Of a stretch of 64,000 nt of DNA, positions 21,226 to 64,000 are shown one piece after another (positions within the stretch are counted from its first letter, which is position 1; each line of letters opens with the position of its first letter). The DNA is taken from contig CAWCKP010000008.1 in NCBI GenBank assembly GCA_963796165.1, forward strand, positions 144,463 to 208,462. The letters run 5' to 3'. The notes below the pieces were generated by a model. That model had not been told where the DNA came from and made no database searches. It was given only the letters and a program-made list of their open reading frames with translations. Source of the stretch: an uncultured Acidobacteriota bacterium (GTDB lineage: Bacteria; Acidobacteriota; Terriglobia; Acidiferrales; UBA7541). The translations under genes were made by a program, and so were the position numbers.

Positions 21226-21235
21226 GCTCGGGCCA

Positions 21236-24514: not shown

Positions 24515-26788
24515 GTGGCGGATACTCCATCCATTGTCGGCCGCAGCATCTCGCACTACGCTGTCCTGGAAAAACTGGGCGGCGGAGGCATGGGGGTAGT
24601 CTACAAAGCCAAGGACACCCGCCTGGGCCGCAGTGTGGCCCTGAAATTCCTCCCTGACGATATTTCCCATGACGCCCAAGCCATCGAGCGATTCCGCCGC
24701 GAAGCGCGCGCTGCTTCCGCGCTCAATCACCCCAACATCTGCACCATTCACGATATTGGAGAATTCGAAGATCGGCCGTTTATCGCGATGGAGCTGCTCG
24801 AGGGCCAAACTCTCAAGCACCGTATTGCCGGGAAGCCCATCGAAATATCGGACCTCTTGCAGTTAGGCATTCAGATCGCTAACGGGCTCGATGCGGCGCA
24901 CTCGAAGGGCATCGTGCACCGCGACATCAAGCCAGCGAATATTTTTCTGGTGGATCGCGGGCAGGCAAAGATTCTGGATTTCGGTCTGGCCAAGGTAGCG
25001 TCTGCGCTGCGCCACGCCGCTGGAGAGTCGGCCAGCGTCACATCCATGCGCACGAATTCGCATTTGCTCAGTGACGACCAACTGACCAGTCCGGGCAGCT
25101 CGATGGGCACGGTGGCGTACATGTCTCCGGAACAAGCGCTAGGCGAAGAACTGGACGCCCGGTCGGACTTGTTTTCGCTCGGGGTGGTGCTTTACGAGAT
25201 GGCTACCGGCGCGGTTCCGTTTTCCGGCGCCACCTCCGCGGTGATTTTCGACGCACTTCTGCATGGCACACCGGCACCCGCGAAGGAGTCAAATGCGCGC
25301 CTGCCTGTAGCCATTGACAACATTCTCGCCAAAGCGCTCGAGAAGGACCGCGAGATGCGCTACCAGAGCGCTGCCGAACTTCGCGCGGACCTGAAGCGCC
25401 TGAGTCGCGACATTGAATCCAGCCGGAGGCCCGCCGCCGAGAAGAGCGCTTCGGGCTCCAGCGCGCCGGGTTCCGGCACGCACCCGGCGGCCGCTCAGCA
25501 AAAATCGGTCGCGGTGCTGTACTTCGAAAACCAGAGTGGCGCGAAAGAGGATGAATACTTCCGCGACGGAATTACCGAAGACATCGTCACCGAGCTGTTG
25601 AAGATCAAGCAATTGCAGATCTTTCCCCGTTCGGAGATGCTTGCCTTCCGCGATAAGCAGGTTACCGCCCTTCACGTGGGCCAGCAGCTTGGCGCCGCCT
25701 ACGTGCTGGAAGGTTCGATCCGCCGCTCGGGTAACCGCGTGCGGATCACCGCGCAGTTGGTCGAGGCCTCGACCCGGCATTCGGTGTGGGCCGAGCGCTA
25801 CGACCGCCAATTGGAAGACGTGTTCGCCATCCAGGAGGAAATCGCGCGGAGCATCGCGCAGGCCCTGCGCATCACCCTAACGCCGCAGGAAGAAAAAACC
25901 ATCGCGCGCAAGCCCACCGAAAACCCCCAGGCCTACGATTTTTATCTGAGGGGAAGAAGCTACTCGCGCCGCGAAAATATCGACTACGGCCTGCAGATGT
26001 TTGAACAGGCCATTCAGGTGGACCCCGATTTTGCTCTGGCGCACGCCGGGATCGCTAACCTCTGCGGGCTCATCTACGAAATTCGCGAGCAGAACCCCAA
26101 ATGGATCGAGCGGGGATTGGCTGCCTGCGACCGCGCCACCGCGCTTGCGCCCGACCTGCCGGAGGTGCTGGTGGCGCACGCCCGCCTCTTTTACGCGCAG
26201 AAGAAATTTCACGACGCCGCGCTGCTGGCCCAGCATGCCATCGAGCGCAAGCCAGACTGTGAAGGAGTCTGGAACATTCTCGGCCGGACCTTTTTCGCCT
26301 CCGGCCGTTACGAAGAGGCCGCAGCGCTGACCGGGCGGGCCATCGAAGCCAACGGCGATGACTACAATACTTATATTCCCTATCTCAACGCCCTGGAACT
26401 GCTGGGACGCAAGAAGGACGCGGAGCACGTCCGCGATCAGATGATCAAGGTCCTCCGCCAACAGCTCGAGCTGGTGCCGGAAGACGTGCGCGCGCGCATC
26501 TTGTTGGCCGGCAACCTCGCCTACTTGAAACAAGACGCGGACGAGACCATCCGCCAGTTGCAGACCGCGGTTGCGCTTCGGCCCGGCGATCCTAACACCC
26601 TTTACAATGCCGCCTGCACTTACGGTATCCTTGGGAAAAAGGCAGAAGCGCTGGACACCATTAAGAAGGCGTTTGCAGCAGGCTACAGCAACCCTGGTTG
26701 GGCTGCCACCGACACCGATCTCGATCTTCTGCACGACGACCCTGAATTCCAGAAACTCGTCGGCCGCAGCGAACGCCCCGCGTCGTAG
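24515..26788 (+). CDS. Ser/Thr protein kinase with central alpha/beta module and TPR repeats (paralog K2)
   Basis: Same architecture as K1. [16 protein letters not shown]. The most divergent kinase domain of the four. The C-terminal half is close to K3 and K4. Confidence 0.9.
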
Positions 26789-26819: not shown

Positions 26820-26848
26820 TTGCCTGCATCGAGGCGCTGGCGTAGAAT
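26820..26848 (+). promoter_or_regulatory. sigma70-like promoter of kinase paralog 3
   Basis: TTGCCT, 17-nt spacer, TAGAAT. ATG at 26859, 10 nt after the -10 box. Confidence 0.5.
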
Positions 26849-26858
26849 GCACGGGCCA

Positions 26859-29084
26859 ATGGCTGATACCTCTCCCATCATCGGCCGCACCATCTCGCGT
26901 TACCGCATCCTGGAAAAGATCGGCGGCGGGGGCATGGGTGTGGTCTACAAAGCCGAGGACTTGAATCTCGGCCGCGTAATCGCCCTGAAGTTTCTTCCCA
27001 ACGATGTCTCCACGGATGCCACTGCGCTGGAGCGATTCCGCCGCGAAGCTCGCGCCGCATCGGCACTCAACCATCCCAGCATTTGCACCATTCATGAAAT
27101 TGACGAACGCGACGGCCAATGGTTTATCGCCATGGAGTTTCTCGACGGCCTGACCCTGAAGCATCGCATCAGCGGCAAGCCGCTCCCGTTGGAGCTGCTA
27201 CTCGACGTGGGCATCCAGATTTCCGACGCGCTGGATGCGGCGCACTCGGAAGGGATCATTCATCGCGACATCAAGCCCGCGAATATCTTCATCACCAAGC
27301 GCGGGGTGGTGAAGATCCTCGATTTTGGTTTGGCGAAAACGCTGGCGACGGCATCCCCGTTGATCTCAGCGACCGAGGATTTTGTTTCCCCCGAACATCT
27401 CACCAGTCCGGGTAGCACCCTGGGAACGGTGGCGTACATGTCGCCGGAACAGGCGCGGGCCCGCGAGTTGGATGCGCGCTCGGACATCTTCTCGTTCGGT
27501 ACCGTGCTGTACGAGATGGCCACCGGCAGCTTGCCCTTCCGCGGCGAGAGTACCGCGGTGATTTTCGAAGCTCTTCTCAGCCGAGCGCCAATTCCGGCAG
27601 TGCGTTTGAACCCGGAACTGCCGGCGAAGCTCGGAGAGATTATCGAGAAAGCGCTCGAGAAAGACCCCGACCTGCGCTGCCAGACGGCTGCCGAACTCCG
27701 CACCGACCTGAAACGCCTGAAGCGTGACACCGAATCCAGCCGCTCGCCCGCGGAGAAGAGCGCCTCGGCCTCGGGGGCGCATCCGTCCGCGTCCCAACAA
27801 AAATCAGTCGCGGTGCTGTACTTCGAAAACCAGGGTGGCGCGAAAGAGGACGAATACTTCCGCGACGGGATTACTGAGGATGTCGTCACCGAGCTCCTGA
27901 AGATCAAACAACTGCGAATCTTCCCGCGCTCCGAGATGCTTGCATTCCGCGACAAGCCAGTAACCGCGTTACAGGCGGGCCAGCAACTCGGCGCCGCCTA
28001 TGTCCTGGAAGGCTCGATCCGCCGCGCCGGCAATCGCGTGCGGATCACCGCACAACTGGTGGAAGGCTCGACGCGGACGTCCGTCTGGGCCGAGCGCTAC
28101 GACCGCCAACTGGAAGACGTGTTCGCCATCCAGGAGGAAATCGCGCGCAGTATCGCCCAGGCTTTGCGCATCACGCTTACGCCGCAGGAAGAAAAAAACT
28201 TCGCGCGCAAGCCCACAGAAAACCCCCAAGCGTATGATTTTTATCTAAGGGGAAGAAGCTACTCGCGGCGCGAAAATATCGACTACGGCCTGCAGATGTT
28301 CGAACAAGCCATCCAGCTTGACCCCAATTTCGCCCTGGCGCACGGCGGAATTGCCCAGCTGTGCGGGCGGATCTACGAGACTCGCGAGCAGGACCCGAAG
28401 TGGATCGAGCGGGGATTGGCTGCCTGTGACCGAGCCGCTGCCCTGGCACCCGACCTGCCGGAAGTGCTGGTCGCACACGCGCGCATGTTTTATGCGCAGA
28501 AGAAATACGACCAAGCCGCGACGCTGGCCCAGCGCGCGATCGAACACAAGAACGACTGTGAAGGATCCTGGAACCTGCTGGGCCGATCCTATTTCGCCTC
28601 CGGCCGTTTTGAGGAAGCTGCCGCGCTCACCGAGCGGGCGCTGGAAGCCAATGGAGACGACTACAACACCTTTATTCCATACTCGGGCGCCCTCAATCGG
28701 TTGGGGCGTAAAAGGGAGGCGGCAGATGTCCGGAGGCGCATGACCGGGGTCCTGCGACAACAATTGGAACTGGTTCCGGAGGACGTGCGCGCCCGCATCC
28801 TGCTGGCGGTCAACCTTGCCAATTTTGGGGAGCCGGAGGAAAGCGTCCGGCACCTGCAGACCGCCGTCGCCCTGCGCCCCAACGATAGCAATACTCTCTA
28901 CAATGCTGCGTGCACCTACGGCGTGCTTGGGAAAAAGGCAGAAGCGCTCGAGACGCTAAAAAGGGCCTTTGCCGCCGGATACGGCCTAAGAGATTGGGCC
29001 GCCAAAGATCCCGATCTCGATTGCCTGCACGACGACCCTGAATTCCAGAAATTAGTCGCCCGCAGCGAACACCCCGCGTCGTAG
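26859..29084 (+). CDS. Ser/Thr protein kinase with central alpha/beta module and TPR repeats (paralog K3)
   Basis: Same architecture. The N-terminal ~245 codons are almost identical to K4. Confidence 0.9.
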
Positions 29085-29123: not shown

Positions 29124-29152
29124 TTGCCTGCATCGAGACGCTGGCGTAGAAT
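29124..29152 (+). promoter_or_regulatory. sigma70-like promoter of kinase paralog 4
   Basis: TTGCCT, 17-nt spacer, TAGAAT. ATG at 29163, 10 nt after the -10 box. Confidence 0.5.
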
Positions 29153-29162
29153 GCACGGGCTA

Positions 29163-31382
29163 ATGGCTGATACCTCTCCCATCATCGGCCGCACCATCTC
29201 GCGTTACCGCATCCTGGAAAAGATCGGCGGCGGGGGCATGGGTGTGGTCTACAAAGCCGAGGACTTGAATCTCGGCCGCGTAATCGCCCTAAAGTTTCTT
29301 CCCAACGATGTCTCCGCGGATGCCACTGCGCTGGAGCGATTCCGCCGCGAAGCTCGCGCCGCATCGGCACTCAACCATCCCAGCATTTGCACCATTCATG
29401 AAATTGACGAACGCGACGGCCAATGGTTTATCGCCATGGAGTTTCTCGACGGCCTGACCCTGAAGCATCGCATCAGCGGCAAGCCGCTCCCGTTGGAGCT
29501 GCTACTCGACGTGGGCATCCAGATTTCCGACGCGCTGGATGCGGCGCACTCGGAAGGGATCATTCATCGCGACATCAAGCCCGCGAATATCTTCATCACC
29601 AAGCGCGGGGTGGTGAAGATCCTCGATTTTGGTTTGGCGAAAACGCTGGCGACGGCATCCCCGTTGATCTCAGCGACCGAGGATTTTGTTTCCCCCGAAC
29701 ATCTCACCAGTCCGGGTAGCACCCTGGGAACGGTGGCGTACATGTCGCCGGAACAGGCGCGGGCCCGCGAGTTGGATGCGCGCTCGGACATCTTCTCGTT
29801 CGGCACCGTGTTGTACGAGATGGCCACCGGCAGCTTGCCCTTCCGCGGCGAGAGTACCGCGGTGATTTTCGAAGCCATTCTCAGCCGAGCGCCAATTCCG
29901 GCAGTGCGTTTGAACCCGGAACTGCCGGCGAAGCTCGGAGAGATTATCGAGAAGGCGCTCGAGAAAGACCCCGGCCTGCGCTGCCAGACGGCTGCCGAAC
30001 TCCGCGCCGACCTCAAGCGCCTCGGTCGCGACATCGAATCCAGCCGTCTGCCCGGTGCTGAGAAGAGCGTTCCCGGTTCCGGGGCACACGTGGTGGCAGC
30101 CAAGCAGAAATCAGTCGCGGTGCTGTACTTCGAAAACCAGAGTGGCGCGAAAGAGGACGAATATTTCCGCGACGGGATTACTGAGGATATCGTCACCGAG
30201 CTTTCTAAGATCGCGAAACTGGAAATCTTTCCCCGCTCGGAGATGCTCGGATTCCGCGACAAGCCGGTCACCGCGCAACAGGTGGGTCAGCAGCTTGGCG
30301 CCACCTATGTGCTGGAAGGTTCCATCCGCCGCGCTGGTAACCGGGTGCGCATCACCGCCCAGCTGGTGGAAGCCGCTACGCGGCATTCCGTCTGGGCCGA
30401 GCGATACGACCGGCTACTAGAAGACGTCTTCGCCATCCAGGAGGAAATCGCGCGAAGTATCGCCCAGGCCCTGCGGATTACGCTGACGCCGCAAGAAGAA
30501 AAAACCATCGCGCGCAAGCCCACCGAAAACCCCCTGGCCTACGATTTTTATTTGCGTGGACGCAGCTACACGCGCCGCGAGAATATGGACTACGGCCTGC
30601 AGATGTTCGAACAAGCCATCCAGTTGGACCCCAATTTCGCGCTGGCCCACGCCGGGATTGCGCACCTGTGCGGGATCATTTACGAGCTTCGCGAACAGAA
30701 CCCCAAATGGATTGAACGCGGACTGGCAGCCTGCGACCGAGCCACCGCGCTGGCGCCCGACACACCGGAAGTGTTGGTAGCGCTCGCGCGCATCCGCTAT
30801 GCCCAGAAGAAATATGACGAAGCTGGGCTGCTGGCCCAACGGGCCATCGGGCGCAAACCCGACTGTGAGGGATCCTGGAGTATCCTCGGCCGGGCTTATT
30901 TCACCTCGGGTCGTTACGAAGAGGCTGCGGCGCTCGTCGAACGAGCGCTCGAAGCCAACGGGGACGACTATAATGCTTATGTCCCGTATTACGGGGCGAT
31001 GGACCGCCTGGGACGAAAGAAGGAATCCGAGCATATCCGCGAGCGGATGATCAGGGTCATCCGCCAACAACTCGAGCTGGTGCCGGAAGACGTGCGTGCC
31101 CGGATCTTGCTGGCTTCCCAACTCGCCTATTTGAAACAAGACGCTGACGAGAGCATTCGCCACCTCCAGACCGCCGTCGCCCTTCGCCCCAGCGATCCCA
31201 ACACCCTCTACAACGCCGCGTGCACCTACGGCATCCTTGGCAAAAAGACGGAAGCGCTCGAGGCGCTCAAGAAGGCCTTTGCGGCCGGACATGGCAATCG
31301 GGATTGGGCAGCGCAAGATCCCGATCTCGATCTTCTGCACGACGACCCTGAATTCCAGAAGTTAGTTGGCCGCAGCGGATAG
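29163..31382 (+). CDS. Ser/Thr protein kinase with central alpha/beta module and TPR repeats (paralog K4)
   Basis: Same architecture as K1-K3. Confidence 0.9.
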
Positions 31383-43101: not shown

Positions 43102-44615
43102 GGCGGTGTCAAGATTTTTGTGTAAACGGCCTTCGGTTTTTTCTTTTTGAGTCCTTTTTCGTTCCATTAAAACAACCCGTCGCCGGAGCTGTGGGAATGT
43201 GGGAATCTCGCGTCTTCTGCGAGATTTCCAAGGAGATGTGGAAAGCCTGGTGTTGGCTTTCCATAGCTCCGTCATTTCCATAGCTCTGTTTCACGAAATT
43301 TTCTCGCGCAAGGCTGGCGCTAACTGTCACGCGCGCTCCCCCGCCGGCATGCGGTCCGGCCAGAGAACGGTGAAGCGGTTCAGCGCGGCACACCAATCCT
43401 GTACCGGCCTCGTCCATCTTTTGGAGGCATTTTTCAACGCTAGGTATAACAGCTTCAGAGCCGCCTCCTCGTTCGGAAACGAACCCCGCATTTTGATGAT
43501 TTTACGCAGCGACATGTTCAGCGATTCCACCGTGTTGGTCGTGTAAATTACTTTCCGAATCTCGGCCGGATAGGCAAAAAACGGTGTAATCCGATCCCAG
43601 TGCCGGCGCCAGGTTTGGCTCACCACCGGGTACACCGCATCCCACTTTTCCGCAAACTCATCCAGTTGCACTTTCGCCTCCGAGGCCGTCGCCGCTTGAT
43701 AGATCTTCCGTAAGTCCGCTGCCACTTGCTTGCGCTGTTTCCAGTTCGTGTAGCTCAACGAGGCCCGTATCATGTGCACGATACAGGTTTGCACCTCGGC
43801 CTTTGGATACACCGATTCAATCACCTCCGGGAACCCCTTCAGCCCGTCCACGCAGGCGATGAAGATGTCTTTCACCCCGCGATTTTGCAACTCCGTCAGC
43901 ACCTGCAGCCAGAACTTCGCCCCTTCGTTCTGCGCCGCCCAGAGTCCCAGAACCTCCTTGTTGCCCTGCAGGTTCACCGCGATCGCCACGTGGATCGCTT
44001 GGTTCCGAATGTGTCCGCCATCGCGCACCTTCACCCGCAGCGCATCCATGTACAGGATCGGGTACACCTCATCCAAAGGCCGGTTCTGCCACGTCTTTAC
44101 TTCCTCCATCACCGCTTCGGTGACGTTGGAAACCAAGGTGGGCGAAACCTCTACCCCATAGATCTCTTTCAGATGCCCCTCGATTTCTCGCGTGGTCATC
44201 CCCCTCGAGTACATCGAAATGATCTTGTCGTCGAAACCGTCAAAGCGGGTCTGCCCTTTGCTCACAATGGCCGGCTCAAAGCTCCCGTTGCGATCCCGCG
44301 GCGTCTCCAATTCCATCTCCCCGAAATCGCCTTTCAGCTTCTTCTTGCTGGCTCCGTTTCTCGAGTTCCCGCTGTTGTAGCCCGCCGGATCATGCTTTTC
44401 GTAGCCGACGTGCTCCGTCAGCTCCGCATTCATCGCCCGCTCTAAAAGAGCCTTGGTGAGCTGCTTCAGCAGTCCGTTCTCTCCGATAATGTCTTCCGGC
44501 TTCTTGTAGCCCGCCAGCAGTTCATCAACTAGCTTTGGATCTATGGTCATCAGTTCTCCTTGTTTGAGTCTGCTCTATTCCCGACGACCGTTTACACAAT
44601 CTTTTTTACACCCTC
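43102..44615 (-). mobile_element. IS256-family insertion sequence with 8-bp target site duplication
   Basis: GTGGCACC occurs at 43094-43101 and 44616-44623. The terminal inverted repeats match at 21 of 30 positions, including a perfect TTGTGTAAACGG. An intact transposase lies inside. Confidence 0.85.
43327..44550 (-). CDS. IS256 family (Mutator-type) transposase
   Basis: 407 aa. LLKQLTKALLERAMNAELTEHVGY, RNGSFEPAIV, MYSRGMTTREI, YMDALRVKVR, DGLKGFPEVI, CIVHMIR, TTNTVESLN. Confidence 0.9.
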   Translation of the reverse strand: MTIDPKLVDELLAGYKKPEDIIGENGLLKQLTKALLERAMNAELTEHVGYEKHDPAGYNSGNSRNGASKKKLKGDFGEMELETPRDRNGSFEPAIVSKGQTRFDGFDDKIISMYSRGMTTREIEGHLKEIYGVEVSPTLVSNVTEAVMEEVKTWQNRPLDEVYPILYMDALRVKVRDGGHIRNQAIHVAIAVNLQGNKEVLGLWAAQNEGAKFWLQVLTELQNRGVKDIFIACVDGLKGFPEVIESVYPKAEVQTCIVHMIRASLSYTNWKQRKQVAADLRKIYQAATASEAKVQLDEFAEKWDAVYPVVSQTWRRHWDRITPFFAYPAEIRKVIYTTNTVESLNMSLRKIIKMRGSFPNEEAALKLLYLALKNASKRWTRPVQDWCAALNRFTVLWPDRMPAGERA

Positions 44616-52952: not shown

Positions 52953-54056
52953 TTACGCCATCGCCGCGGACAATCCCTGAATCTGAATCAGCCCGGCGAG
53001 CGGCTTGTTTTTGCGGGCCTTCAGGTTTTCCGACATTATCCCGGTGCGCACCAGCGACTTCTCGCAATCCTGGGTGGACGGCCCGCGCATGTTGCCTTCC
53101 ATGTACGCCAGTCCCGGGCAGCGTGTGCAAGTGCCCATGTTCGAGCACTTCGAGCAACTGGTGAGATCGCGCACGGTGATCGATCGCACTTCGTTCATCT
53201 CCGGCGAGTAGCGCCAGATATCCAGAAATTTCTTTTCCCGCACGTTTCCGGTCGGCAGCGGAAACTGCACGCAGGGATAAACGTCGCCGTAGGGTGAAAC
53301 GTACGCCGCGGTGTGGCCCGCGCTGCATGGCAGGGAATCCAGCGCGTCGGCGTCCGGCGCTGCGGGAATCGAGCAGAATTCCTCGACGTTACCCACCAGC
53401 TCCGGAGTGTGAAACAACTTGTCCAGCTCGGCGTGACCGATATTCAAATTCAGAACTTCGCGGTTGCCATCCATCATCGGGGTGATGGTGGGATCGATGG
53501 TCACGTAACAACCCAGTTCGTTGCCCAGCGCACGCACGGCCGCCTGGTCCTGAATATTCTGGATCATCAAGACGTTGGCGATGATCACTTTGATTCCGTA
53601 GGATTTCAGAAAACGAATCGCGTGTACCGACCGTTCGAGCGACCCTGGAATCTTGGTGATCTCGTCGTGGATTTCCGGGCGGTGCGAATAGATGCTGATC
53701 TGCACCGAATCCACGCCCAGAGCGCGAATACGCTCGGCTTCCTTCTCGCGGATCAGGATGGCGTTGGTTTTCAGCTTCACGCAGAACATCAGCGCGCGGG
53801 CATGCTCGAGGATTTCGAAGAAGTCCTTGCGCATCAGAATTTCGCCGCCGCTCAAGGTAAGAAAGAAAACGCCGGCCGCCGCCATTTCATCGAGCAGGTC
53901 TTTGATTTCCTGGGTATTCATCTCGCCGTGGTCTTCGTGGTCGAGATAGCAATGCACGCAGCGCTCGTTGCAGCGATAGGTGAGGTCGAGCTGCACGCTC
54001 AGGGGGATTCCTAGCTTCAGGGCACGCTGGCCCATTTCCTCCATTAAGGCGCTCAT
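52953..54056 (-). CDS. radical SAM / SPASM domain protein (peptide- or protein-modifying maturase type)
   Basis: LTYRCNERCVHCY (CX3CX2C). C-terminal Cys-rich SPASM region CSAGHTAAYVSPYGDVYPC...CSKCSNMGTCTRCPG. Confidence 0.85.
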   Translation of the reverse strand: MSALMEEMGQRALKLGIPLSVQLDLTYRCNERCVHCYLDHEDHGEMNTQEIKDLLDEMAAAGVFFLTLSGGEILMRKDFFEILEHARALMFCVKLKTNAILIREKEAERIRALGVDSVQISIYSHRPEIHDEITKIPGSLERSVHAIRFLKSYGIKVIIANVLMIQNIQDQAAVRALGNELGCYVTIDPTITPMMDGNREVLNLNIGHAELDKLFHTPELVGNVEEFCSIPAAPDADALDSLPCSAGHTAAYVSPYGDVYPCVQFPLPTGNVREKKFLDIWRYSPEMNEVRSITVRDLTSCSKCSNMGTCTRCPGLAYMEGNMRGPSTQDCEKSLVRTGIMSENLKARKNKPLAGLIQIQGLSAAMA

Positions 54057-54412
54057 GGAGTCTCCTTGGCCGGGCCGCCGGTCTGGGTGATCGCGATCTG
54101 CGTGATCGCCGCTTGCGTGATCGGCTGATCCGAAACCAGCAGCAATCCGTGGCTGGTAAGCTCGGCCACCAGATCCTCCGCGTCGCTCAGGGCCACGCTG
54201 GGAGCTACTTCAAAGGCCGCGCACACTTTCTGGTCCACGATCTGATCGAGCGGCGTCGAACCGTCCGCCGCTTCCCAGATCGCGGTGGCCACTTCGTTCA
54301 GGGTAAACAGGGTAGAATCCTTCGCCGACATAATCATCATCTCTCCGCCCACCGCGCGAGCGGCGATCTGCGTACTTCGCGCGACGTAACGCTTCTGCGC
54401 TCCTGCGTCCAT
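54053..54412 (-). CDS. PqqD family protein (RiPP recognition element-like chaperone)
   Basis: ...IAARAVGGEMMIMSAKDSTLFTLNEVATAIWEAADGSTPLDQIV... is the typical PqqD pattern. Its stop overlaps the rSAM start by 4 nt. Confidence 0.7.
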   Translation of the reverse strand: MDAGAQKRYVARSTQIAARAVGGEMMIMSAKDSTLFTLNEVATAIWEAADGSTPLDQIVDQKVCAAFEVAPSVALSDAEDLVAELTSHGLLLVSDQPITQAAITQIAITQTGGPAKETP

Positions 54413-54460
54413 TGAGCCTTTTACTGCGCACTTCGATTCACATATTTCTAAGACGATGCT

Positions 54461-55297
54461 TTAACCCCGCCCAGCTCTATCTTGCTGCACCATTTCCCAC
54501 ACCCGCGCATCCGGCAGAAAGGTGAGCTGCCGCACCGGCGCCTTGCGCACGAACTCCGCCGCCGTTTCGAACACTAGTTTAACAAGCTCGGGGTCCCGCG
54601 CGAAGAACAGAATACTCTCCAGGAGTGCTCGGATGGCAACTTGTTCGGGCACTGTTTCGATCTGGTTCACTGGACCCTGCTTTAGTAAGTACAGTACGCC
54701 CACGGGTACTTTTACGTTTTCTCCCGGAGTATTCAGCTCGCCAACAAAGGGAGTTCCGTAAGCAAAATACCCCTCCGGAAGCTTACGGACGTAGGAAACC
54801 TCATCGGTAAGCAGCGTAGCGCTGGGCGGCGCCAAGCGGGCCATGGTGGTCTTGCCGGCCCCGGAGACGCCCGCAAAGAGCACCGCGCGGCCGCCTACCG
54901 AGGCGCTGGATGCGTGCAGCAAGAACCCGCCTTCCCGAGCCAGCAGCAAGGTATGCAGGATGCGCATCACCGCGTCGATGGAATAGGGGTTAGCGGTCTG
55001 GCGGATGCGCCCGCACCCCGCCGCCGGATTCCATTCCGCACGAAAATCGCCGCGGGAGAGCGACCATTTCCCCGCATCGAACACCACTTCGACGTCCTGA
55101 TCCTGATATTCCATGCCCGGCGGTTGCAAATCGATGTCGAACTCAAACCGTGGCTCGCTGGTGGTGGTGACGAACCCGGCATAGCGCTTCCGCAACAGGG
55201 CAATGAACTCCGGGTCGGCAACCCGCAGGCGCACCGGCAGCCCGCCGATTTCGATGATGACGCCAGGTACTTCGCTGGGGGTGCTTACGGTTGCCAT
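54461..55297 (-). CDS. HPr kinase-related P-loop protein (HprK-like kinase as found in RiPP clusters)
   Basis: LLHASSASVGGRAVLFAGVSGAGKTTMA P-loop context typical of the HprK C-terminal-domain-like family. Confidence 0.65.
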   Translation of the reverse strand: MATVSTPSEVPGVIIEIGGLPVRLRVADPEFIALLRKRYAGFVTTTSEPRFEFDIDLQPPGMEYQDQDVEVVFDAGKWSLSRGDFRAEWNPAAGCGRIRQTANPYSIDAVMRILHTLLLAREGGFLLHASSASVGGRAVLFAGVSGAGKTTMARLAPPSATLLTDEVSYVRKLPEGYFAYGTPFVGELNTPGENVKVPVGVLYLLKQGPVNQIETVPEQVAIRALLESILFFARDPELVKLVFETAAEFVRKAPVRQLTFLPDARVWEMVQQDRAGRG

Positions 55298-55878
55298 AGC
55301 ACCGCTTCTTCCGACCACTTTTCATTGGCCTGCCGGTAGGCCCGCGCCGGAAGGGTGAACCGCAGAAACAGGGAGGTGGCCCGGTCGGAGCGGCGCAGCG
55401 CCAGCGCGAGCAAGATGCTCTCGAACCAACTCAATCGTGGACCCGGCGTGAATCGCAGCTCGCCATCGCCGCGGGTGGTGCGTCGGCTCACCGATTCCAC
55501 CACCGCAATCAAATTCTCGGGAAGCACCGCGGGGTCGTCGCAAACCGCGCGATCCCCTCGGGTGATCCAGCGCCGCGCGCCCGCTTCTTGCAGCACCGTT
55601 ACCACTCGATGGGTGATCAGCCGCGGTCCGGAGGAGTAAACGATAAGTTGTCCTACGGAAATTTCTTCAGGGGCGGCCCGGCGGACGCTAAGAATATCGC
55701 CGGGACGAAGCGTGGGAGCCATGCTCGACCCTAAAACCCTGAGCCGCGCCGCGCCAAACTTCTGAACCAGCTCGGCGGTCATTTCCACTTTCAGCGCTGC
55801 GCACTCTTGGGTGTCCCGAGGCATCGCTGGCATCGGCGCGGGACCCGGTGCCGCAGCCTTGCTCTCCGCCGCGGTCAT
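55285..55878 (-). CDS. S24/S26-fold serine peptidase (signal-peptidase/LexA-like), apparently soluble
   Basis: LGSSMAPTLRPGDIL (nucleophile Ser box), LITHRVV (His where bacterial SPase I has Lys), TRGDRAVCDDP. No N-terminal TM helix. Confidence 0.6.
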   Translation of the reverse strand: MTAAESKAAAPGPAPMPAMPRDTQECAALKVEMTAELVQKFGAARLRVLGSSMAPTLRPGDILSVRRAAPEEISVGQLIVYSSGPRLITHRVVTVLQEAGARRWITRGDRAVCDDPAVLPENLIAVVESVSRRTTRGDGELRFTPGPRLSWFESILLALALRRSDRATSLFLRFTLPARAYRQANEKWSEEAVLWQP

Positions 55879-56018
55879 CGCTCACCTCTGGCTTCGCTGG
55901 TGCTTCGGGGGGCGCCGGGGCAACGCCCGGCGCGAAAGAAAACGCTCGAAGCGGACCGCCCGTTTTTGCTACAGCTTGCGGGCCGCTTCGAGCGTCGACT
56001 TCGGTTATTCATCCAGCG

Positions 56019-58211
56019 TTAGTTTAGACCATTCTGCGTGGCCTTCACAGCGCAGCCTTGGTCGCCGGTGCAGACTCCGTTGGTGGTTCCCACCGCGAGC
56101 GGTGTGAAATATACGCTCGAACCGGAAGTGGAGCTTGCCGAAACCACGTTATCGATAACGATCCCGCTGGTCCCGCCCGGTTCGCCCAGCGACGCTGCCA
56201 CTGCCGTCGGGAACGCGTCGGTTGCGCTGTCGCCGAGGGTTACGTCGATCGACATCAGGCACCCGCCCGAGCTGTTCGTCTGGCCCTGGCCGGTCAGATC
56301 GCAGTTGGCGCCGTTGCCGCCCGCGGTCACTCCGAAGAACATCAGGTCCATTCCGTTGTTGTAGACCTCGGTGAGCGGTGAGCATTCCGAGTCCGGCGTC
56401 GTTCCTACCTGCAACTGATTGGTATCGCTGCCGATGAAGTCGCCATAGGCGTCGAACGTTATCCGCCGGATCGTCGGCAAATCCATGGTGGGCTGCTTGC
56501 CGCAGTAGTACAGATGGCCCTGGGCCATATCACCCGAGTAGTAGTTGTTGTCGAAGTCGCCAGAATGCATCTGCGCGCCGGCCGCTCCCACTCCCAGTGA
56601 GGTAGGATCGGTCAGCGAAACAGTGGCCTGAATGATCTCCGCGTTTCCGGCACCGTTGTTGCCGACGAACACCAGCACCATCTCGGTATTGGAATCGACG
56701 ATCGGCGGATCCGGAATCGGGTTCCCGCCAGTGGGTATCACGCAGTCGTGCGCGACCGGGGTGGTGCTGGTGGTCACGTAGCTGACACAGCCCTTGGAGT
56801 CGGCCATAATGACGTTTCCGCTTACGTTGTCGTACACCGGCCCTGTCAGTTTCGCGCCGCTATCCACGGTGATACTCCACGTCTTGGACGGCGAAGTACC
56901 CAGAAACACGCCAGTGTATTTATAGAGCGTACCGTTGTCGTCGCCCACATAGATCACGTCATCCCAATAATCGGCGAACGGGGCTGAGTTGGAAGATGAA
57001 TGGCTACCCATCGGCAGCACTAGCTGGCAATTGGTGCACGTGCTCCAGGTGGAGCTGGTCGCGGTCGTCGGGGTTGCCGGCGCGGTGATTGAACCGGACC
57101 CAGCCGCCCATTTCAGAATGTGCAGGTTAGACCCGGTGGAGGTGCTCACCACAAACGCGATCTTGGTTCCATCCATGGACAGCGCCACCGAACTGGCGGT
57201 CGTTCCGCCGGTCTCGCTGGAGGTCGATACGCCGTAAGCGAAATAGGTGGAAGGCCCGGAGCCGCAAGTGGAATAGAGATTGTTCAGGGCCACGAGGTTC
57301 GCTGCCGCTGTGCTTGTTCCGCCGTTGCCGCCGATGAACTTCGGAAAGAACCACGTGAAGTTTTCCGAGTTCGAGCAGGAACCGAAGAAGAACGGGAAGC
57401 AATCGATCGCGCCGCTCGGTCCCACCGTGGAGTTGTTGCCTGCGGAGCCCGCGACGGTATCCGTAACGATTACCCAGTTGCCGAAGAATACCTGCGCGGT
57501 GTAGGTGAAGATCCCGGAGGTGGCCGCGTTGACCGCCGTCACGAAGTTGCTGGCTGCCTGAGAGGGGCTGCTGCCCTGTTGGAAATGCAAACTACTCACC
57601 GCGGTGGTGTTGGAGATGGCCGTAAAGGTTGTACCATTGATTTGGATGGTGGAACCCACGGCTGGTATGTTCCAAAAGAAACCGTAGTCGATGGCTTTGG
57701 TCGAATAGCCAGTCGCGCCCGTTCCCGACGCGGTATTGGTGTTGTAGGCCACGAAGTCGCTGGTGCAATTCGGCGTTGCGTTGACGTTGAAGCTATACTT
57801 GGCAGGGAACTGTTCGTTCCCGACGCTCGCGCTCGCTCCCAGGGCCGCCGTCCAGTCGCGGTGCATCGGACCGCTCTCCGGTTCCGCCTGATGATCTCCC
57901 CATCTCGCCGGTAGGGTCGGGTTCACATAGCGTGGGCCCGAGTCGCCTGGGTCCGAGAGGGGTTTCATGGCGGTCATCGCACGCCGGTAGTATTGCTGCA
58001 TGAACCGTGGGTCCTGCTGGAGCCGCCGGGACTGCTCGGCGCTCTTCGGTGCAGAAAAGACCAGGTTCTTATGGCTCCAGTCGGTGACCAATGGGACCCG
58101 GGCTCGGGTTTCAGTCTGAGCTACGTCAGGGGTCTGGGCCATCAGGGTGAGCCCTAGTGTCAAAGTTGACGCGATTCCTAGGGCCACTTTCAGGAAGCTT
58201 TTGTGTGTCAT
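56019..58211 (-). CDS. large secreted beta-propeller-like protein (paralog P1)
   Basis: Within ORF 56019..58361. The start MTHKSFLKVALGIASTLTLGLTLMAQ is a signal peptide with AAGGGA upstream. N- and C-terminal regions are homologous to the gene at 59890..64000. Confidence 0.75.
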   Translation of the reverse strand: MTHKSFLKVALGIASTLTLGLTLMAQTPDVAQTETRARVPLVTDWSHKNLVFSAPKSAEQSRRLQQDPRFMQQYYRRAMTAMKPLSDPGDSGPRYVNPTLPARWGDHQAEPESGPMHRDWTAALGASASVGNEQFPAKYSFNVNATPNCTSDFVAYNTNTASGTGATGYSTKAIDYGFFWNIPAVGSTIQINGTTFTAISNTTAVSSLHFQQGSSPSQAASNFVTAVNAATSGIFTYTAQVFFGNWVIVTDTVAGSAGNNSTVGPSGAIDCFPFFFGSCSNSENFTWFFPKFIGGNGGTSTAAANLVALNNLYSTCGSGPSTYFAYGVSTSSETGGTTASSVALSMDGTKIAFVVSTSTGSNLHILKWAAGSGSITAPATPTTATSSTWSTCTNCQLVLPMGSHSSSNSAPFADYWDDVIYVGDDNGTLYKYTGVFLGTSPSKTWSITVDSGAKLTGPVYDNVSGNVIMADSKGCVSYVTTSTTPVAHDCVIPTGGNPIPDPPIVDSNTEMVLVFVGNNGAGNAEIIQATVSLTDPTSLGVGAAGAQMHSGDFDNNYYSGDMAQGHLYYCGKQPTMDLPTIRRITFDAYGDFIGSDTNQLQVGTTPDSECSPLTEVYNNGMDLMFFGVTAGGNGANCDLTGQGQTNSSGGCLMSIDVTLGDSATDAFPTAVAASLGEPGGTSGIVIDNVVSASSTSGSSVYFTPLAVGTTNGVCTGDQGCAVKATQNGLN

Positions 58212-58506
58212 ATTCATATTCCCTTTGCCTCGCCAAGAAAGATTTGGGGCCCGGTGTTCCGGGTCGATACGGTTATACCGGAGTGCCGCAAGATGGCCCA
58301 ATCTAATCGGATTTGGAACATGAAGTAGGGGGACGTACAGTACTTTGCCCATGATTCGCAAAGTGAGAATCGTTTGTAAATATATGAATATAGGCAGCTT
58401 GAACTTTAGCTCTTTGCGGACCCATCGAGTTTCGAGGCGGAAAACTGGAGTGAGTCAGGCGGCTCATGTATCAGGACCTATAGGCGCAGGAGTACGCTGC
58501 TAGACT

Positions 58507-58950
58507 CGCCGTTGTGGCACTGCGACTCCTCGCGGTGCGGCCCCAAACCACCGAAAACTCCCTGGTCTCAAGACACGAGCACAATGTCTGGGGGGGTGCT
58601 ACGACAGGTTCTGTTCGAAAAATGGCCCGAGTGCCGTGTTGAGAACCGAGTTTGGTGTTTGTTTTGAGGGGGATGCAATCTCTAAACGCGGCACGTAGGG
58701 TTCCCGGATCTGCCCGGTGGCCGCTTCGTGGCTCGAAGCTCGATTTGAACTCGATTGGGCGCGGAGTGATTGGAGTACGGAGCATCGTTCGGAGTTCCAC
58801 CGGACACCCTTGCAGATGGCAAGGTGAAAAAACATCCGCTGGAATACGGCCTTTCTAACGTTTTGGAGCGGAGATTGTGTTCGTTGTTTTGATTTGGGGA
58901 ATTTTGTAATGCTGGCACGCACCGCGAGGAGTCGCTGTGCCACAACGGCG
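58507..58950. repeat. inverted pair of 33-bp GTTGTGGCAC-type repeats bracketing about 380 bp
   Basis: CGCCGTTGTGGCACTGCGACTCCTCGCGGTGCG at 58507-58539. The reverse complement of 58918-58950 is CGCCGTTGTGGCACAGCGACTCCTCGCGGTGCG, one mismatch. Confidence 0.75.
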
Positions 58951-59813
58951 GTGTCACAACGGCGCCTTTAAACAAATCACACACGCGAAAATTCACAGGC
59001 AAAAATTCTCACGCTAAAAAAAACGCTCACCGCAACAGACACACGCGTAGCGTGCGTCCGTTAACTGCATCTCAAATTTTTTTGTGCGAGTGTGGATGCG
59101 TGCAGCGCATTCCTCACGAGACGCGTGCAGCCCTTACGATGCTTTGCGATGGAACTTGCAGGACGACTGTGTCGCGCTGATTTTTCCGCAGTGCAACGCC
59201 ATGGTCTCGAAGACACGCTCATGACGTACTGCGGGTTTGTGGTATGGTTTTTTCCCTCCCGCTCCTGAGGGCTTGGCGGCGTTTGAAAAATTTGTGCTCA
59301 ATTTGACCTCATTTCAACCGTGAGATGCATTCCCTAGACGAAGGTGGCAAAAAATACCTCTGGCCATCCGCGCCAGGGCCGCCTGCGGATATTTACCCCC
59401 ACAGTGTACCATTACGTAGCGCGATTTTCACCGATGTTTGTAACGCAAATGTAAATATTCCAGAACCGCCCCTTCCCGTCCCCCGACAGCCCTTAACGCT
59501 AGGTCCAACCTAGCCTTACGCCGAACCGCCCGCCCGGCCCGCGCTCCTAGACCCACCGTCTCAGCCCCTACATGCTGTATGCCCCAGGGGGACGCCTAGA
59601 GTGCTCCCAGAGGCCCTCCAGGCACTTTCAGGGGCCCTAGCCCTAGGGCCAAAGCCCGAAGGAGACAAACGTCGGGCCGTAGAAGCGAAGTCAAAACACC
59701 CACGCTTCCCAAAATCGGGGAAGAATGGGGCACCCAAAAAACATGGAAGCGTGAATCAAAACCTAAAGGCAAACACGTCGAACCGTAGAACCTAGCCCAA
59801 TTCACGCTACCAA

Positions 59814-59851
59814 TAAAAAAAGCAGCCTGGATGAGGTTCCATCCAGGCTGC
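59814..59851 (-). terminator. rho-independent terminator of the giant repeat-protein gene
   Basis: Minus strand reads GCAGCCTGGATG-gaacctc-ATCCAGGCTGC followed by TTTTTTT. Confidence 0.8.
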
Positions 59852-59889
59852 CGGTTTTTGCTGCCATCCGCCCCTCCAGGCGGTTGCTT

Positions 59890-62800
59890 TTACTGCAGAC
59901 CTGCCTGCGTCAGCTTCACGGCGCAGTATTTTCCGACGGCGCAAACGGGGTCTGCGGAAGTGCCGACCGCCTCGGTAGTGAAGTACATGCTCGAGGCCTG
60001 AGCGGCGGGGCTGATGTTGTCCACCACGATTCCGCTGGTGCCATCCTGCGCGGGCGGGTAGGTATTTACGGAGTGTTCGATGCCCTTGGTCATCACGTAC
60101 GAGGTGGTGACGCTGTAGCCCTGACCCACCGCCGCTCCGAATGCTCCGGTTCCGCCGGCGATGCGCCCGACGCCGAACAGCATGTAATCGGTGCCGTCGG
60201 GGCCGCCGTCCGAACCCGGCTGGAAGATTTCGGTGATCGGTGCGCACTCAGCGTAATCGGACGAAGCCAAGGTGGAGAGGCTCAGCCCGAGGGTTGCATC
60301 GACCGCGTTGTTCATGACGCCGGCGTTGAAAGTGATCGCGAACATCGACGGCGCAGCGGTCGTTGAGTTGTCGCAGACGAACAAGTGGCCGGTGCCCGTG
60401 CCGTTGTAGTAGTTATTGTCGAACGCCGGCGCATGCACGTTGACTACGCTCGCCCCAGTAGTGGCTGGGTTCGTTCCGCAGAAGGCGCCAGTGCCGGTGC
60501 TGAGGTTATTGACGCGGTTGCCGAACAACGTTGTCCCAGCAGCGCCGGTGGAGGCTTGGGTCACCACCGCACGGTTGGAAGAGCTCACCGACGTTGCCGC
60601 GTTCTGGGTGTAAGCATAGAGCGCGTTAATCGAATCGTCGATGATCACCGGATCGGTGATGCCTCCGGATTCCACCAGACCGGAACCGCAGCTTCCGGTT
60701 CCTTCGCCAACCGCCATCGATGAAGCCGCGCCCGAGCCCAGCGGATACGGTACTGCGTACACTTTACCGTCCGCCGCGCCTACGAACACGTTACCCGATT
60801 GCTCGTCCTCAACTGGGCCGGTCAGCATGGTCTGGCCCGAAGTGGTGCCCACCTGCGTGCTGGTGACTACCGGTGCGGCGGTTCCGCCAGTGGTGGCGGT
60901 TCCCACGAACACCGGAGAGACCGAGTAGAGCACGCCCTGGTCGTCTCCGAAGTACAGCACGTCGTTGTCGTAGTCGTAGTAGGGTGACGAGAGAGTGATG
61001 TGGTTGCTGCCGATCGCCACGTTGACCATGCACGACCCGGAAGCTGCGCAACCCGCTGTTGGCGGGTCCAGGGTTACCGTCGGTGCCGAAACGTAGCCGG
61101 TGCCGTTGCTGGTCAGCGTGATCGAAGTCACCGCGCCGCCCGAGATGTTTGCGGTTGCGGTCGCGCCGGAAGCGCTTGCACCGCCGCCGTTGATGTACAC
61201 GTTCGGAACCGTGGTGTAGCCGCTTCCGCCGTAAACCAGGTTGATCGCGGATAGCTGATCCAGGGTGCTTGCCGTGGCTGCCGCACCAGTTCCACCGCCG
61301 CCGGTGCCGAAAGTAACCGTCGGAGTGCCGCTGTAGCCGCTGCCGCCATTGGTTAGGTTAACCGAAGCAACCGAGCCGCTGATGGTTGCAGTTGCGGTCG
61401 CGCCCGATCCGCCGGTGCCACTGTTACCGAAGGTAACCGTCGGCGCCGAAGTGTAGCCCGAGCCCGCGCTGGTGACCGTCACCGAGCTGACCACGCCGCC
61501 AAGGTTCGCGGTTGCTGCTGCACCGCCGGTACCGCTGATGGTCACCGCCGGGACTGCTGTGTAGTTGTTGCCTGCGTTGGTAACGGTGATCGAGGAAACG
61601 TACTTCGATGTGACCGCTGTCGCTGCCGCGCCGGAACCGCCAGTGCCGGTGTTGTTGAAAGTGATGGTTGGCGCGGTAGTGTAGACGCCGGGGGTGGTAA
61701 CCGTCACGCTGCCGACGACTCCGGTCAGATTAGCCGTTGCCGCTGCACCGCTGCCTGCGCCGCCGCCGGTGAATGCCACCGTCGGAGCTGAGGTGTAGCC
61801 AGTACCGACCGCTGTCTCATTGACTCCAGTAACCGATCCGGAGAACGTTACGGTGGCTGCCGCGCCGGTGCCGGTGCTGCTGGTGAATGAAACCGTGGGA
61901 GCCGCGGTATAGGCCCCGCCGCTGGTCAGGGTTACGCTCTGCACCGTTCCGCTGATCTTCGCGGTGGCCGTAGCTTGGGTGGTTGCGCCGCCGCCGGTGA
62001 TGGTCACCGTCGGGTTGGCAGTGTAGCCGCTGCCGCCACTCGTTAGAGTGAGCGAGCCCACCACCTGAGAAGTGGTTGTGCTCACGGTATAAACCGCCGC
62101 GGTGTTTTGCACATAGTAGCCGCCGATGGTCATAACGATGCTGCCGCCGGTCAACGTATACGAACCGCCATTGGTGATGCTCACGCTACTGACACAAGAG
62201 TAAAGACCACCCTCCGCAGTGGTGCACGGCGGCTTCGCTGTCGCGGTGGCCACCGTGCCGGTTGCCTGGGTGTTCTGGACGCAACCCGTTGCGCTGCAGG
62301 AGAACGTCACAGTCGGACTGTAAAACCAGTAGGCGCCGGTGTTGGTAAAGGTCACGCTGCTAACCGAGTAGACCGTGGCCAGGTTCGCGGTGGCCGTAGC
62401 GGTGGTCCCAGATGTGGGGGCCGAAATCGTTACCGTCGGGGCCGAGGTATATCCCGCGCCTGCGGTGGCCAGCGTCAATGTACTCACTGGACCCGCGATC
62501 GTTGCCGTTGCCGCTGCTCCGCCGGAGCCGCTGAAGACCACCGTCGGCGCGGTCTGGTATCCGCTGCCTGCCGCGGTGACGTTCACGGCCTGTACCGAAC
62601 CGCTAAAAGTTGCCGTCGCGGTTGCGCCGCTGCCGCCGCCACCAGTGACGCTAACCGTGGGAGCGGAAGTGTAGCCGGATCCGCCACTGGTCAAACTGTA
62701 GGATCCAACGCCCTGGCTCAGATTGGCGGTAGCTGCTCCGCCGCCGGTTCCGGAGTAAACCACCGTCGGTGCTGAGGTGTAGCCGGTGCCGCCGTTGGTT

Positions 62801-64000
62801 ACGTTAATCGAAGTGACGCCGGTGGCGAGCACGGCGGTGCCGGTTGCGGTGGTTCCGCCGTTACCCGGTGCCGCTACGCTTACCGTGGGGGTGGTCGTGT
62901 AGCCCGATCCGCCTGCGGTTACGGTGTAAGAAGTGACGCCATTGGTGACGTTGGCCGTGCCGGTGGCGACAGTGCCGCCCTGGCCGGTGGGGTTGCTAAA
63001 CGTGACCGTGGGCGCCGAAGCATACCCGCTGCCCTGCGCGCTGACGTTTACGTTCGCTACACCTGCATTCAGAATGGAAGTAGCGGTGGCGCCAGTCCCG
63101 TTGCCACCGCTAATCGTTACCGTCGGCGCGGTAGTGTATCCGCTGCCGCCGTTGGTTAGGGTGATGCTCGAGACCGTGTCTGAAACGGTAGCCGATGTGC
63201 CGCGGCATCCGCGGAAAGCGTGGAAGGAGCCACAGCGTGTACCGCGTCGCCGTTGCTGGCGCCGTCGCCCGCGTTCCAGCTCAAAATGTGCAAGTAGGTG
63301 GTCGCGCCGCCGCTTTCCAGAAAGGCTACCTTCGTGCCATCCTCAGAGAGCACCGGAGAAGTGGTGATCTTCCCGCCCGAGGCAGTGGTCGTGTTGTACG
63401 ACCAATAGACGATCGGCCCGGTCCCGGGGCATATCCCGTCCGCTACTCCGCCCCCGTTGACGCCGGTGTACAGATTGTCCAGCGCCACCAGGTTCCCTTG
63501 TCCGCCGGTCACGCCCGCCACATCCAGGCCGTAGACCACGAAGTCAGGGAACCCGTATTCGGGCGTCCCGGTGGTTCCGGTGCAGTTCGCAGTGGTCACC
63601 GGGGCATTGATGTCGAAAGTGAATTTCGCCGGGTACATTCCCGGGGCCACGAAGCCAGCGCCCAACGAGAACGACCAGTCGATGTGGGCGGGGTTCGCCG
63701 GCTGCTGCCCGCGATCCTCACCGAGGAAGCCCCCGGCGAGCCGCACGTCCCTGCCGATCCCATTCGAGGAAGGACCGCCGACGCCCACCGAGGCCGCCGC
63801 ACGGGTGTTGCTATGCAGCTTCCTCGAGTAGATATAGCGCTTGTCGTTGGGCTTGGCCGCCTCTTCGTCGGGAGTGCGGTCCTTCGAGTAGATCATGTGG
63901 GTGTAGCTCCAATCCACTGGCAGAGACACCCGAGTGTGCCCAGCATCGGGGGTAGTCTGCGCGATAGCCGCCCCAGAGCCTATCAGGGCCGCAACAGCGA
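59890..64000 (-). CDS. giant secreted beta-strand-repeat / beta-propeller-like protein (paralog P2). The 5' end lies beyond the window and there is one frame change near 63200
   Basis: ORF 63156..63929 (open to the window end, reading ...AVAALIGSGAAIAQT signal-peptide-like) is homologous to the P1 N-terminus. ORF 59890..62832 and its open upstream extension to about 63240 hold about 20 GGSGYTSAPTVT-type repeats. The C-terminal ~400 aa are homologous to P1. Confidence 0.75.

Follow-up and report, generated by a model that had tools for sequence, protein, structure and literature searches.

A precursor peptide gene accompanies a conserved set of radical SAM/SPASM, PqqD, ScmC-family kinase and signal-peptidase-like genes in an uncultured Acidobacteriota bacterium

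The 64,000-nt stretch of contig CAWCKP010000008.1 from an uncultured Acidobacteriota bacterium (hereafter the window) carries on its minus strand four tightly packed genes, which encode a signal-peptidase-like peptidase, a P-loop kinase of the ScmC family, a PqqD-type protein and a radical S-adenosylmethionine enzyme with a SPASM domain (rSAM; Table 1). The peptidase and kinase genes overlap by 13 nt (55285-55297) and the PqqD and rSAM genes by 4 nt (54053-54056), with a 48-bp gap (54413-54460) between the two pairs and a gap of 140 bp (55879-56018) from the peptidase gene to the next gene upstream. The first-pass annotation, which had been made from the sequence without database searches, gave the same coordinates, overlaps and gaps for the four open reading frames (ORFs), and the motifs that it listed, i.e., CNERCVHC (CX3CX2C), GVSGAGKTT and GSSMAPTL, are present in them. 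Hidden Markov model (HMM) searches placed its domain assignments far above chance, and its reading of the genes as a maturase set for peptides that are made by the ribosome and modified after translation (RiPPs) also held. That annotation had, however, considered the set to be an orphan, i.e., with no recognisable precursor, and this claim failed: a precursor peptide gene is located 3.3 kb upstream of the four enzyme genes, beyond a 780-aa ORF. It is very probable that the locus is a complete RiPP gene cluster and not an orphan maturase set.

Table 1. Features of the RiPP locus and its surroundings (window positions)
Feature	Positions	Strand	Description
Precursor peptide gene	59134-59301	minus	55 aa; TTG start, GAGG 5 nt upstream; HMM match
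Peptidase gene	55285-55878	minus	197 aa; soluble S26B-type (SipW/Sec11-like) Ser/His enzyme, predicted leader peptidase
P-loop/ScmC-family kinase gene	54461-55297	minus	278 aa from ATG; upstream GTG at 55318 also open
PqqD gene	54053-54412	minus	119-aa ORF; discrete PqqD-type RiPP recognition element (RRE)
rSAM/SPASM gene	52953-54056	minus	367-aa ORF; radical SAM/SPASM peptide maturase
Secreted beta-propeller gene	56019-58217	minus	732 aa from ATG 58217; ORF to 58361 (780 aa); between precursor and peptidase genes
Upstream propeller paralog	59890-63929	minus	GGSGYTSAPTV-type repeats; colinear with the 1342-aa protein of locus L085
Terminator-like hairpin	59821-59852	minus	14-bp stem, then T run, after the upstream paralog; consensus scan only
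MITE-like element (miniature inverted-repeat transposable element)	58507-58950		444 bp bounded by a 33-nt inverted repeat, 97% complementary

The first lead to the precursor came from a 64%-identical locus (L002/L003; L numbers denote the related loci), where a called 62-aa ORF, RiPP-precursor-like in sequence, separates the peptidase gene from a large gene without annotation. For comparison, 80 loci around ScmC-like genes were fetched from species-representative genomes with flanks of ~8 kb (some of the counts given here use 82 related loci), and in most of the 80 tblastn located the peptide immediately upstream of the peptidase gene. An HMM built from 71 distinct peptides of the related loci matched 74 of the 82 loci, and in the window it gave one significant match only (79.9 bits, E = 6.7e-24). 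The full precursor of the window is MSTNFSNAAKPSGAGGKKPYHKPAVRHERVFETMALHCGKISATQSSCKFHRKAS, and the predicted leader/core boundary divides it into the leader MSTNFSNAAKPSGAGGKKPYHKPAVRHERVFETMA and the core LHCGKISATQSSCKFHRKAS. The first-pass annotation had searched the 48-bp and 140-bp gaps, which indeed hold no precursor, but this search was too narrow and missed the gene because it sits upstream of the 780-aa ORF; its guess of a substrate encoded elsewhere nevertheless pointed in the right direction. A 45-aa ORF of the 140-bp gap (55875-56012), with an 'RFERF' likeness noticed by eye, was rejected as a precursor, as the HMM match there reached no better than E = 0.038, and the matched segment lies across the 3′ end of the propeller gene in another frame.

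The codon differences between the precursor of the window and those of related loci were predominantly synonymous (16 synonymous versus 2 non-synonymous with L087, and 20 versus 9 with L085), which indicates that this is a real coding gene under purifying selection. In the relatives L085 to L088 (four contigs), whose peptides are 82-95% identical to that of the window at a DNA identity of 76-90%, the order is the same as in the window, i.e., large paralog, precursor, spacer (~1 kb), paralog of 721-765 aa, peptidase, ScmC, PqqD and rSAM, and convergent sugar dehydrogenase and melibiase genes are located beyond the rSAM gene. The precursor had no match in NCBIfam or Pfam at E values up to 1, and its database homologs are all named 'hypothetical protein' and carry no Pfam domain.

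The enzyme genes are conserved as a set. At least 597 ScmC-like loci were found among species-representative genomes, nearly all of them metagenome-assembled genomes (MAGs) of Acidobacteriota/Terriglobia, and the kinase profile matched 422 protein clusters (50% identity) at E ≤ 1e-30. The S24/S26 peptidase, PqqD and rSAM genes adjoin the ScmC-like gene in 79 of the 80 fetched loci, so that the four genes are conserved together; the opposite finding in related genomes would, by the first-pass annotation, have told against its reading. The precursor, S26-type peptidase, ScmC-family kinase, PqqD and rSAM/SPASM genes co-travel in hundreds of Acidobacteriota genomes. Two copies of the cassette were observed in some MAGs, on the same or on different contigs (L026/L039, L010/L022, L008/L045, L049/L056 and L027/L051). 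In some long-read MAG assemblies the ORF of a propeller gene passes without a change of frame into that of the precursor (L064:4922-7498 and L069:4243-7470), or PqqD and rSAM were called as a single 452-aa protein (L001:10888-12246); frameshifts in the assembly are a more probable cause than true fusions.

The peptides of the family were numbered relative to a predicted cut after an invariant Ala (-1), and their consensus is ...KKPYxxPxFRFExVFEVSA↓LSCGK-x7-C-x6-S. In the leader, Y(-16), P(-13), F(-5) and A(-1) are found in 72 of 72 peptides, K(-19), K(-18), P(-17), R(-10), E(-8) and V(-6) are close to invariant, one of F, V and L stands at -11, and 69 of 72 peptides have V or T at -3. The leaders thereby carry an invariant Y-x-x-P-x-[FVL] at -16 to -11 from the predicted cut, versus -17 to -12 in lasso peptide leaders, of which YxxPxL is the conserved motif (PMC10368454). 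The core, usually of 20 residues, follows the pattern L-x-C-G-K-[VIL]-x-x-T-Q-x-x-C-x-x-x-x-K-x-S. Exactly two Cys, with 8 to 10 residues between them, are present in 70 of the 71 distinct peptides, and the C-terminal residue is Ser in all 71 and likewise in the peptide of the window. At core position 9, 46 of 53 peptides have Thr or Ser, and this residue is followed by Gln or Glu at position 10.

Pfam HMM searches with the rSAM protein gave matches to PF04055 (Radical_SAM, 85.6 bits) and PF13186 (SPASM, 46.2 bits). No equivalog cutoff of NCBIfam was reached: the second-best match, over residues 15-321, was to MftC (135.6 bits, cutoff 265), the mycofactocin enzyme that acts on the C-terminal residue, and the PqqE model gave 101.3 bits (cutoff 381). 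The closest solved homolog is the thioether-forming sactisynthase SkfB (E = 7.4e-18). The PqqD protein matched PF05402 (53.1 bits), and its top NCBIfam match was lasso_PqqD_Bac, the model of the lasso B1 protein (E = 2e-6, 27.8 bits versus a cutoff of 80). The gene features of the sactipeptides and ranthipeptides, i.e., a CX3CX2C motif with SPASM auxiliary-cluster Cys, an RRE and Cys in the core, are all present at the locus (PF04055, PF13186, PF05402).

The Pfam family PF27840 ('ScmC') stands in the precomputed annotation of a 99%-identical homolog of the kinase (P0001) and of all 120 homologs among the matches listed, these being precomputed assignments and not a re-scoring of the window protein. 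The AlphaFold2 (AF2) model of the kinase (mean confidence score, pLDDT, 80.7) matched ATP-dependent PEPCK (E = 1.4e-8) and HprK/P (E = 6e-4), so that the label 'HprK-like' of the first-pass annotation is correct at the level of the PEPCK/HprK superfamily. H128, the GxSGAGKTT loop and LLTDE are invariant among the homologs. The close homologs all use the ATG at 55297, and an exact-sequence look-up of the protein from the GTG start gave no match because the homologs start at this downstream ATG. Peptidase-kinase fusions are present in other genomes (P0093, 431 aa; P0248, 421 aa; L048:7494-8810) and support a functional link between both enzymes. In 37 of the 80 loci a gene for a PF14907 (NTP_transf_5) nucleotidyltransferase was found, in ~27 of them directly after the rSAM gene and on the same strand (e.g., L011:10543-11613, L039:10474-11544 and L055:10433-11497); the window has no such gene. 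By analogy with the systems discussed below, the ScmC-family P-loop phosphotransferase is predicted to phosphorylate the precursor at its C-terminal Ser.

The peptidase passed the model TIGR02228 (archaeal/ER-type signal peptidase I) with 57.6 bits versus a cutoff of 51.85, and its top solved homolog was human SEC11A (E = 1.2e-4). The S26B signature (G[ST]SMxP, HRVV and TRGDx5D) is kept across 80 homologs, with the Ser and the His in at least 90% of them. No transmembrane segment was found, the maximum 19-residue Kyte-Doolittle mean being 0.98, and the first-pass annotation was right to call the protein soluble, as no hydrophobic segment is able to span a membrane. Since the signature is kept and a transmembrane segment is absent, the protein was classified as a soluble signal-peptidase-like enzyme; it lacks the membrane anchor of signal peptidase I, which has its active site outside the cytoplasm. 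The Ser/His signature GxSMxP...HRVV...GD is shared with SodX (TIGR02754, nickel superoxide dismutase maturation), SipW and Sec11. SodX is anchor-free like the peptidase of the window, yet the SodX model gave only 18 bits versus a cutoff of 63, whereas SipW and Sec11 are membrane proteins with secretory signal peptides as substrates, in contrast to the soluble enzyme described here and its predicted role on a RiPP leader.

These findings are probably best explained by a complete cluster that works as follows. The discrete PqqD domain would bind the lasso-like YxxPx[FVL] leader and present the core, and the rSAM/SPASM enzyme would cross-link the core once or twice at its conserved Cys. Of the possible linkages, thioethers seem the likeliest, since SkfB is the closest homolog of solved structure and Cys is the conserved feature of the core, and by this analogy we give them an even chance. 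The PEPCK/HprK-fold kinase would phosphorylate the side chain of the invariant C-terminal Ser, a step that we somewhat favour on account of the paeninodin-type precedent and because the trio of kinase, C-terminal Ser and, often, nucleotidyltransferase recurs. HPr-kinase homologs phosphorylate, and at times polyphosphorylate, the C-terminal Ser of lasso precursors at its side chain, and the remaining sequence matters little (PMC8498205). Where NTP_transf_5 is present, the phosphate would probably be decorated further, as in pseudomycoidin, in which an 'uncharacterised nucleotidyltransferase' adds hexoses to the phosphate of the C-terminal Ser (PMC6993621). The cytosolic signal-peptidase-like Ser/His enzyme would remove the leader, most likely after the invariant Ala. 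With this cut, the [V/T]-x-A↓L junction agrees with the -3/-1 small-residue rule known for type I signal peptidases, and the odds that the exact site is the correct one appear balanced. The predicted product of the window would be a cross-linked, phosphorylated LHCGKISATQSSCKFHRKAS.

The same genes could in principle perform another chemistry, in which the kinase phosphorylates an internal Ser/Thr (e.g., Thr9) for elimination and Cys addition, so that a lanthionine-like product is formed, or in which the rSAM enzyme acts on the C-terminal Ser instead of making Cys thioethers. The frequent Thr/Ser at core position 9, followed by Gln/Glu, would fit this proposal, as would the MftC match of the rSAM enzyme and the fact that the lasso kinase BsfK phosphorylates an internal residue, Ser3 (PMC10368454). 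However, no lyase or cyclase gene is conserved, the MftC match falls well short of its cutoff, and only the C-terminal Ser is invariant, alongside the kinase and often NTP_transf_5, as in the phosphorylated and phosphoglycosylated lasso peptides (PMC8498205). We therefore consider this chemistry improbable and retain C-terminal phosphorylation together with Cys cross-linking.

Several points weigh against the proposed pathway. Eight of the 82 loci (L012, L017, L031, L062, L071, L078, L080 and L082) have no precursor within the fetched DNA; they also have no propeller gene in the 8-kb flanks, but keep the ScmC-like, PqqD and rSAM genes and, in all but L080, a peptidase ORF. A second precursor type was considered for these eight loci and rejected, as no shared small ORF was found there. 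The ScmC-like protein scored far under the cutoff of every curated kinase model, and no transporter or immunity gene is conserved among the neighbours of the cassette in the 82 loci. Analogy is the ground for the type of cross-link and for the sites of phosphorylation and cleavage. The rSAM enzyme, given its resemblance to MftC, might instead have the invariant C-terminal Ser as its target, and the A↓L site is insecure because a cut one residue later would give exactly the lasso spacing of the leader motif. In the window, moreover, the precursor gene is parted from the enzyme genes by a ~770-bp spacer with the MITE-like element and by a 2.2-kb gene, and co-expression is only presumed.

By its logic, the phosphorylated lasso peptide pathway is the nearest known system. 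The clusters of this type (paeninodin PadeK, ThcoK/SyanK, BsfK and pseudomycoidin PsmK/PsmN) resemble the cassette in the Y-x-x-P-x-[L/F/V] leader motif, which in the cassette is one residue nearer to the predicted cut, and in a discrete PqqD-type RRE, which in the cassette scores below the cutoff of the lasso B1 model. They share with it an HPr-kinase-like enzyme (here by the match to the PEPCK/HprK/P fold) and a precursor that ends in Ser, and the psmN gene of pseudomycoidin is paralleled by the PF14907 gene of the related loci. Lasso clusters, however, have a B2 leader protease and an Asn-synthetase-like cyclase. In agreement with the first-pass annotation, no gene for a B2 transglutaminase-like protein or for such a cyclase was detected among the conserved neighbours of the 82 loci, in the annotated relatives or in the flanks of the window, and the rSAM/SPASM enzyme and the soluble S26-type peptidase take their place in the cassette. 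In addition, the lasso macrolactam needs an acidic residue at core position 7-9, whereas the core of the window has no Asp or Glu at all, and the lasso kinases are only distantly related in sequence to the kinase of the cassette.

By gene content, the nearest curated system is the SynChlorMet cassette of Haft (ScmC TIGR04249, ScmD TIGR04248, ScmE TIGR04250 and ScmF TIGR04251), which shares an ScmC-family protein, a PqqD homolog and a PqqE-like rSAM/SPASM enzyme. All the scores stayed far below the cutoffs: the kinase gave 27.1 bits with ScmC (E = 2.4e-6, cutoff 125), the PqqD protein 20.4 bits with ScmD (cutoff 100), and the rSAM enzyme 106.3 and 57.3 bits with ScmE and ScmF, respectively (cutoff 400 each). 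SynChlorMet has two rSAM enzymes and the cassette one, and the S26-type peptidase, the defined family of precursors and the beta-propeller gene of many loci are additions in the cassette; furthermore, SynChlorMet is found in a phylum other than that of the acidobacterial cassette.

The sactipeptides (SkfA/SkfB) and the ranthipeptides, or SCIFF (six cysteines in forty-five residues) peptides (CteB, PapB), share the CX3CX2C motif and the SPASM Cys clusters, RRE-dependent recognition and a Cys-containing core. Their RRE is an N-terminal domain of the enzyme, whereas that of the cassette is a separate protein; the precursor is not SCIFF-like and had no NCBIfam match; and these pathways, to our knowledge, include neither a kinase nor a signal-peptidase-like protease. 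Another likeness is to quinohemoprotein amine dehydrogenase (QHNDH), the small subunit of which, QhpC, is cross-linked by the rSAM enzyme QhpD and trimmed by the subtilisin-like serine protease QhpE. Common to both are a small Cys peptide, a cytoplasmic rSAM/SPASM enzyme, leader removal by a serine peptidase and genes linked to a large secreted propeller protein. The QhpD model was, however, unmatched (16 versus 453 bits), the cassette shows no cytochrome or quinone-cofactor features, and the link with the propeller is presumed. We thus place the cassette with the RRE-dependent radical SAM RiPP systems, outside every named class, because the SynChlorMet cutoffs were missed, the lasso B2 protein and cyclase are absent and the precursor belongs to no known family. 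The first-pass annotation had not recognised the four-gene combination as a described one, and we likewise found no description of the cassette or its precursor in Pfam, in NCBIfam or in the full-text literature searched, in which subscription journals are thinly covered.

When all ORFs of the loci were clustered, the secreted beta-propeller family was the only further frequent neighbour obtained. It is present in 49 of the 82 loci, and lies beside the precursor on the same strand in 42 of the 74 precursor-bearing loci. The order is propeller-precursor-peptidase in 39 loci, with gaps of 40-80 bp, and propeller-precursor-propeller-peptidase in three (the window, its relative L001, and L023), whereas 25 precursor-bearing loci have no propeller gene within 8 kb. 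The propeller proteins had no match in Pfam or NCBIfam. A specific function was sought with the family profile, which matched blades only (TolB PD40, PF13570), by a sequence search of the PDB, and with Foldseek, with which the AF2 model (pLDDT 80.4) matched only WD40-like propellers and no quinoprotein; as all three gave generic propellers, none could be assigned. The proteins end in a conserved tail, ...GGTSGI[IV]VDN...SS[IV]YF...C-x5-7-C-A-V-[KQ]-x-[ST]-Q-x-x-L-[QNK]-stop (56019-56080 and 59890-59950 in the window), which loosely resembles the CGK...TQ core of the precursor. It was discarded as a substrate mimic, because the two are out of register, the Cys is missing from some members, and the AF2 model shows the tail as a beta-strand.

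The abundance of propeller genes, adjacent to the precursor in so many loci, and the Cys-containing tail that most of their products share would suit a cassette with no dedicated small precursor, the enzymes of which act on a distant substrate or on the C-terminal tails of the large secreted neighbours. We regard this as very improbable: the window and 90% of the loci possess a small, conserved precursor, a propeller gene is missing from the vicinity of 25 precursors, and the propellers carry signal peptides whereas all four enzymes are cytosolic; the lack of Cys in some tails and the beta-strand that the tail forms in the AF2 model point in the same direction. The conserved precursor also makes unnecessary the idea of the first-pass annotation that the giant secreted paralogs are the substrate, and the predicted fold of the tail weakens it further.

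A different role of the propellers was also weighed, in which the matured peptide is their dedicated partner (a small subunit, a ligand or a cofactor-bearing peptide) and not a free bioactive compound. The tight propeller-precursor-peptidase order and the propeller-precursor-propeller order of the lineage of the window and of L023 argue for such a partnership. So do the absence of a conserved transporter or immunity gene, the conservation of both core and leader, which is unusual for an antibiotic-type RiPP, and a weak match of the PqqD protein to the N-terminal region of QhpD (E = 0.0034). One third of the precursor-bearing loci, however, have no nearby propeller gene, the propeller model fits generic WD40-like folds and no quinoprotein, an export route for the peptide is not evident, and the by-eye co-variation of tail and leader types is explicable by shared ancestry, so that this partnership seems rather unlikely. 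We are equally reserved about a still broader proposal, namely, an undescribed class widespread in soil Acidobacteriota in which an rSAM cross-linked, C-terminally phosphorylated 20-mer with a lasso-type leader, RRE and kinase would partner propellers in a QHNDH-like manner.

Some features around the precursor gene might point to decay or inactivity of the copy of the cassette in the source genome. Between the precursor and propeller genes, the low-GC spacer (~770 bp) contains the element bounded by 33-nt inverted repeats, the arms of which have no further copy within the window (0 expected by chance), and the precursor is displaced from its enzymes. The upstream paralog has a frame change near 63196 that splits it into ORFs of 257 and 980 aa, making it either a pseudogene or the product of a sequencing error, and the terminator-like hairpin is located between it and the precursor; this hairpin suggests that the precursor has its own transcription start. 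Decay is nevertheless highly unlikely, because the five core ORFs are intact, with their catalytic motifs, and the gene order is kept in relatives at 76-90% DNA identity. Furthermore, the precursor is under purifying selection, and the frameshift is possibly a sequencing error.

The Acidobacteriota rank with the most abundant bacteria of soils, and hardly any of their numerous RiPP-like clusters has been characterised. The results shift the reading of this locus: where maturases seemed to lack a substrate, there is now an acidobacterial RiPP family, widespread but uncurated, whose precursor is defined and whose chemistry can be tested. If the proposed pathway is correct, C-terminal Ser phosphorylation by HPr-kinase-like enzymes, perhaps with phosphoglycosylation, would extend beyond the lasso peptides, a cytosolic signal-peptidase-like enzyme would serve as leader peptidase, and the lasso-type leader and RRE module would have been combined anew with a radical SAM enzyme. 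Systems of this general kind are familiar, and a RiPP specialist would want the test, to which the pathway is open now that the precursor has been identified.

Elsewhere in the window, an Rfam scan of the 52-64 kb region gave no matches. Four tandem plus-strand ORFs of ~750 aa are located at 21224-23488, 24515-26788, 26820-29084 and 29124-31382. They were considered as relatives of the cassette and dismissed, as the one that was scanned (21224-23488) encodes a PknB-like Ser/Thr kinase with a TPR tail, which is unrelated to the propeller paralogs. An intact transposase gene of the Mutator family (IS256-like; PF00872, 428 bits) is present on the minus strand at 43327-44550.

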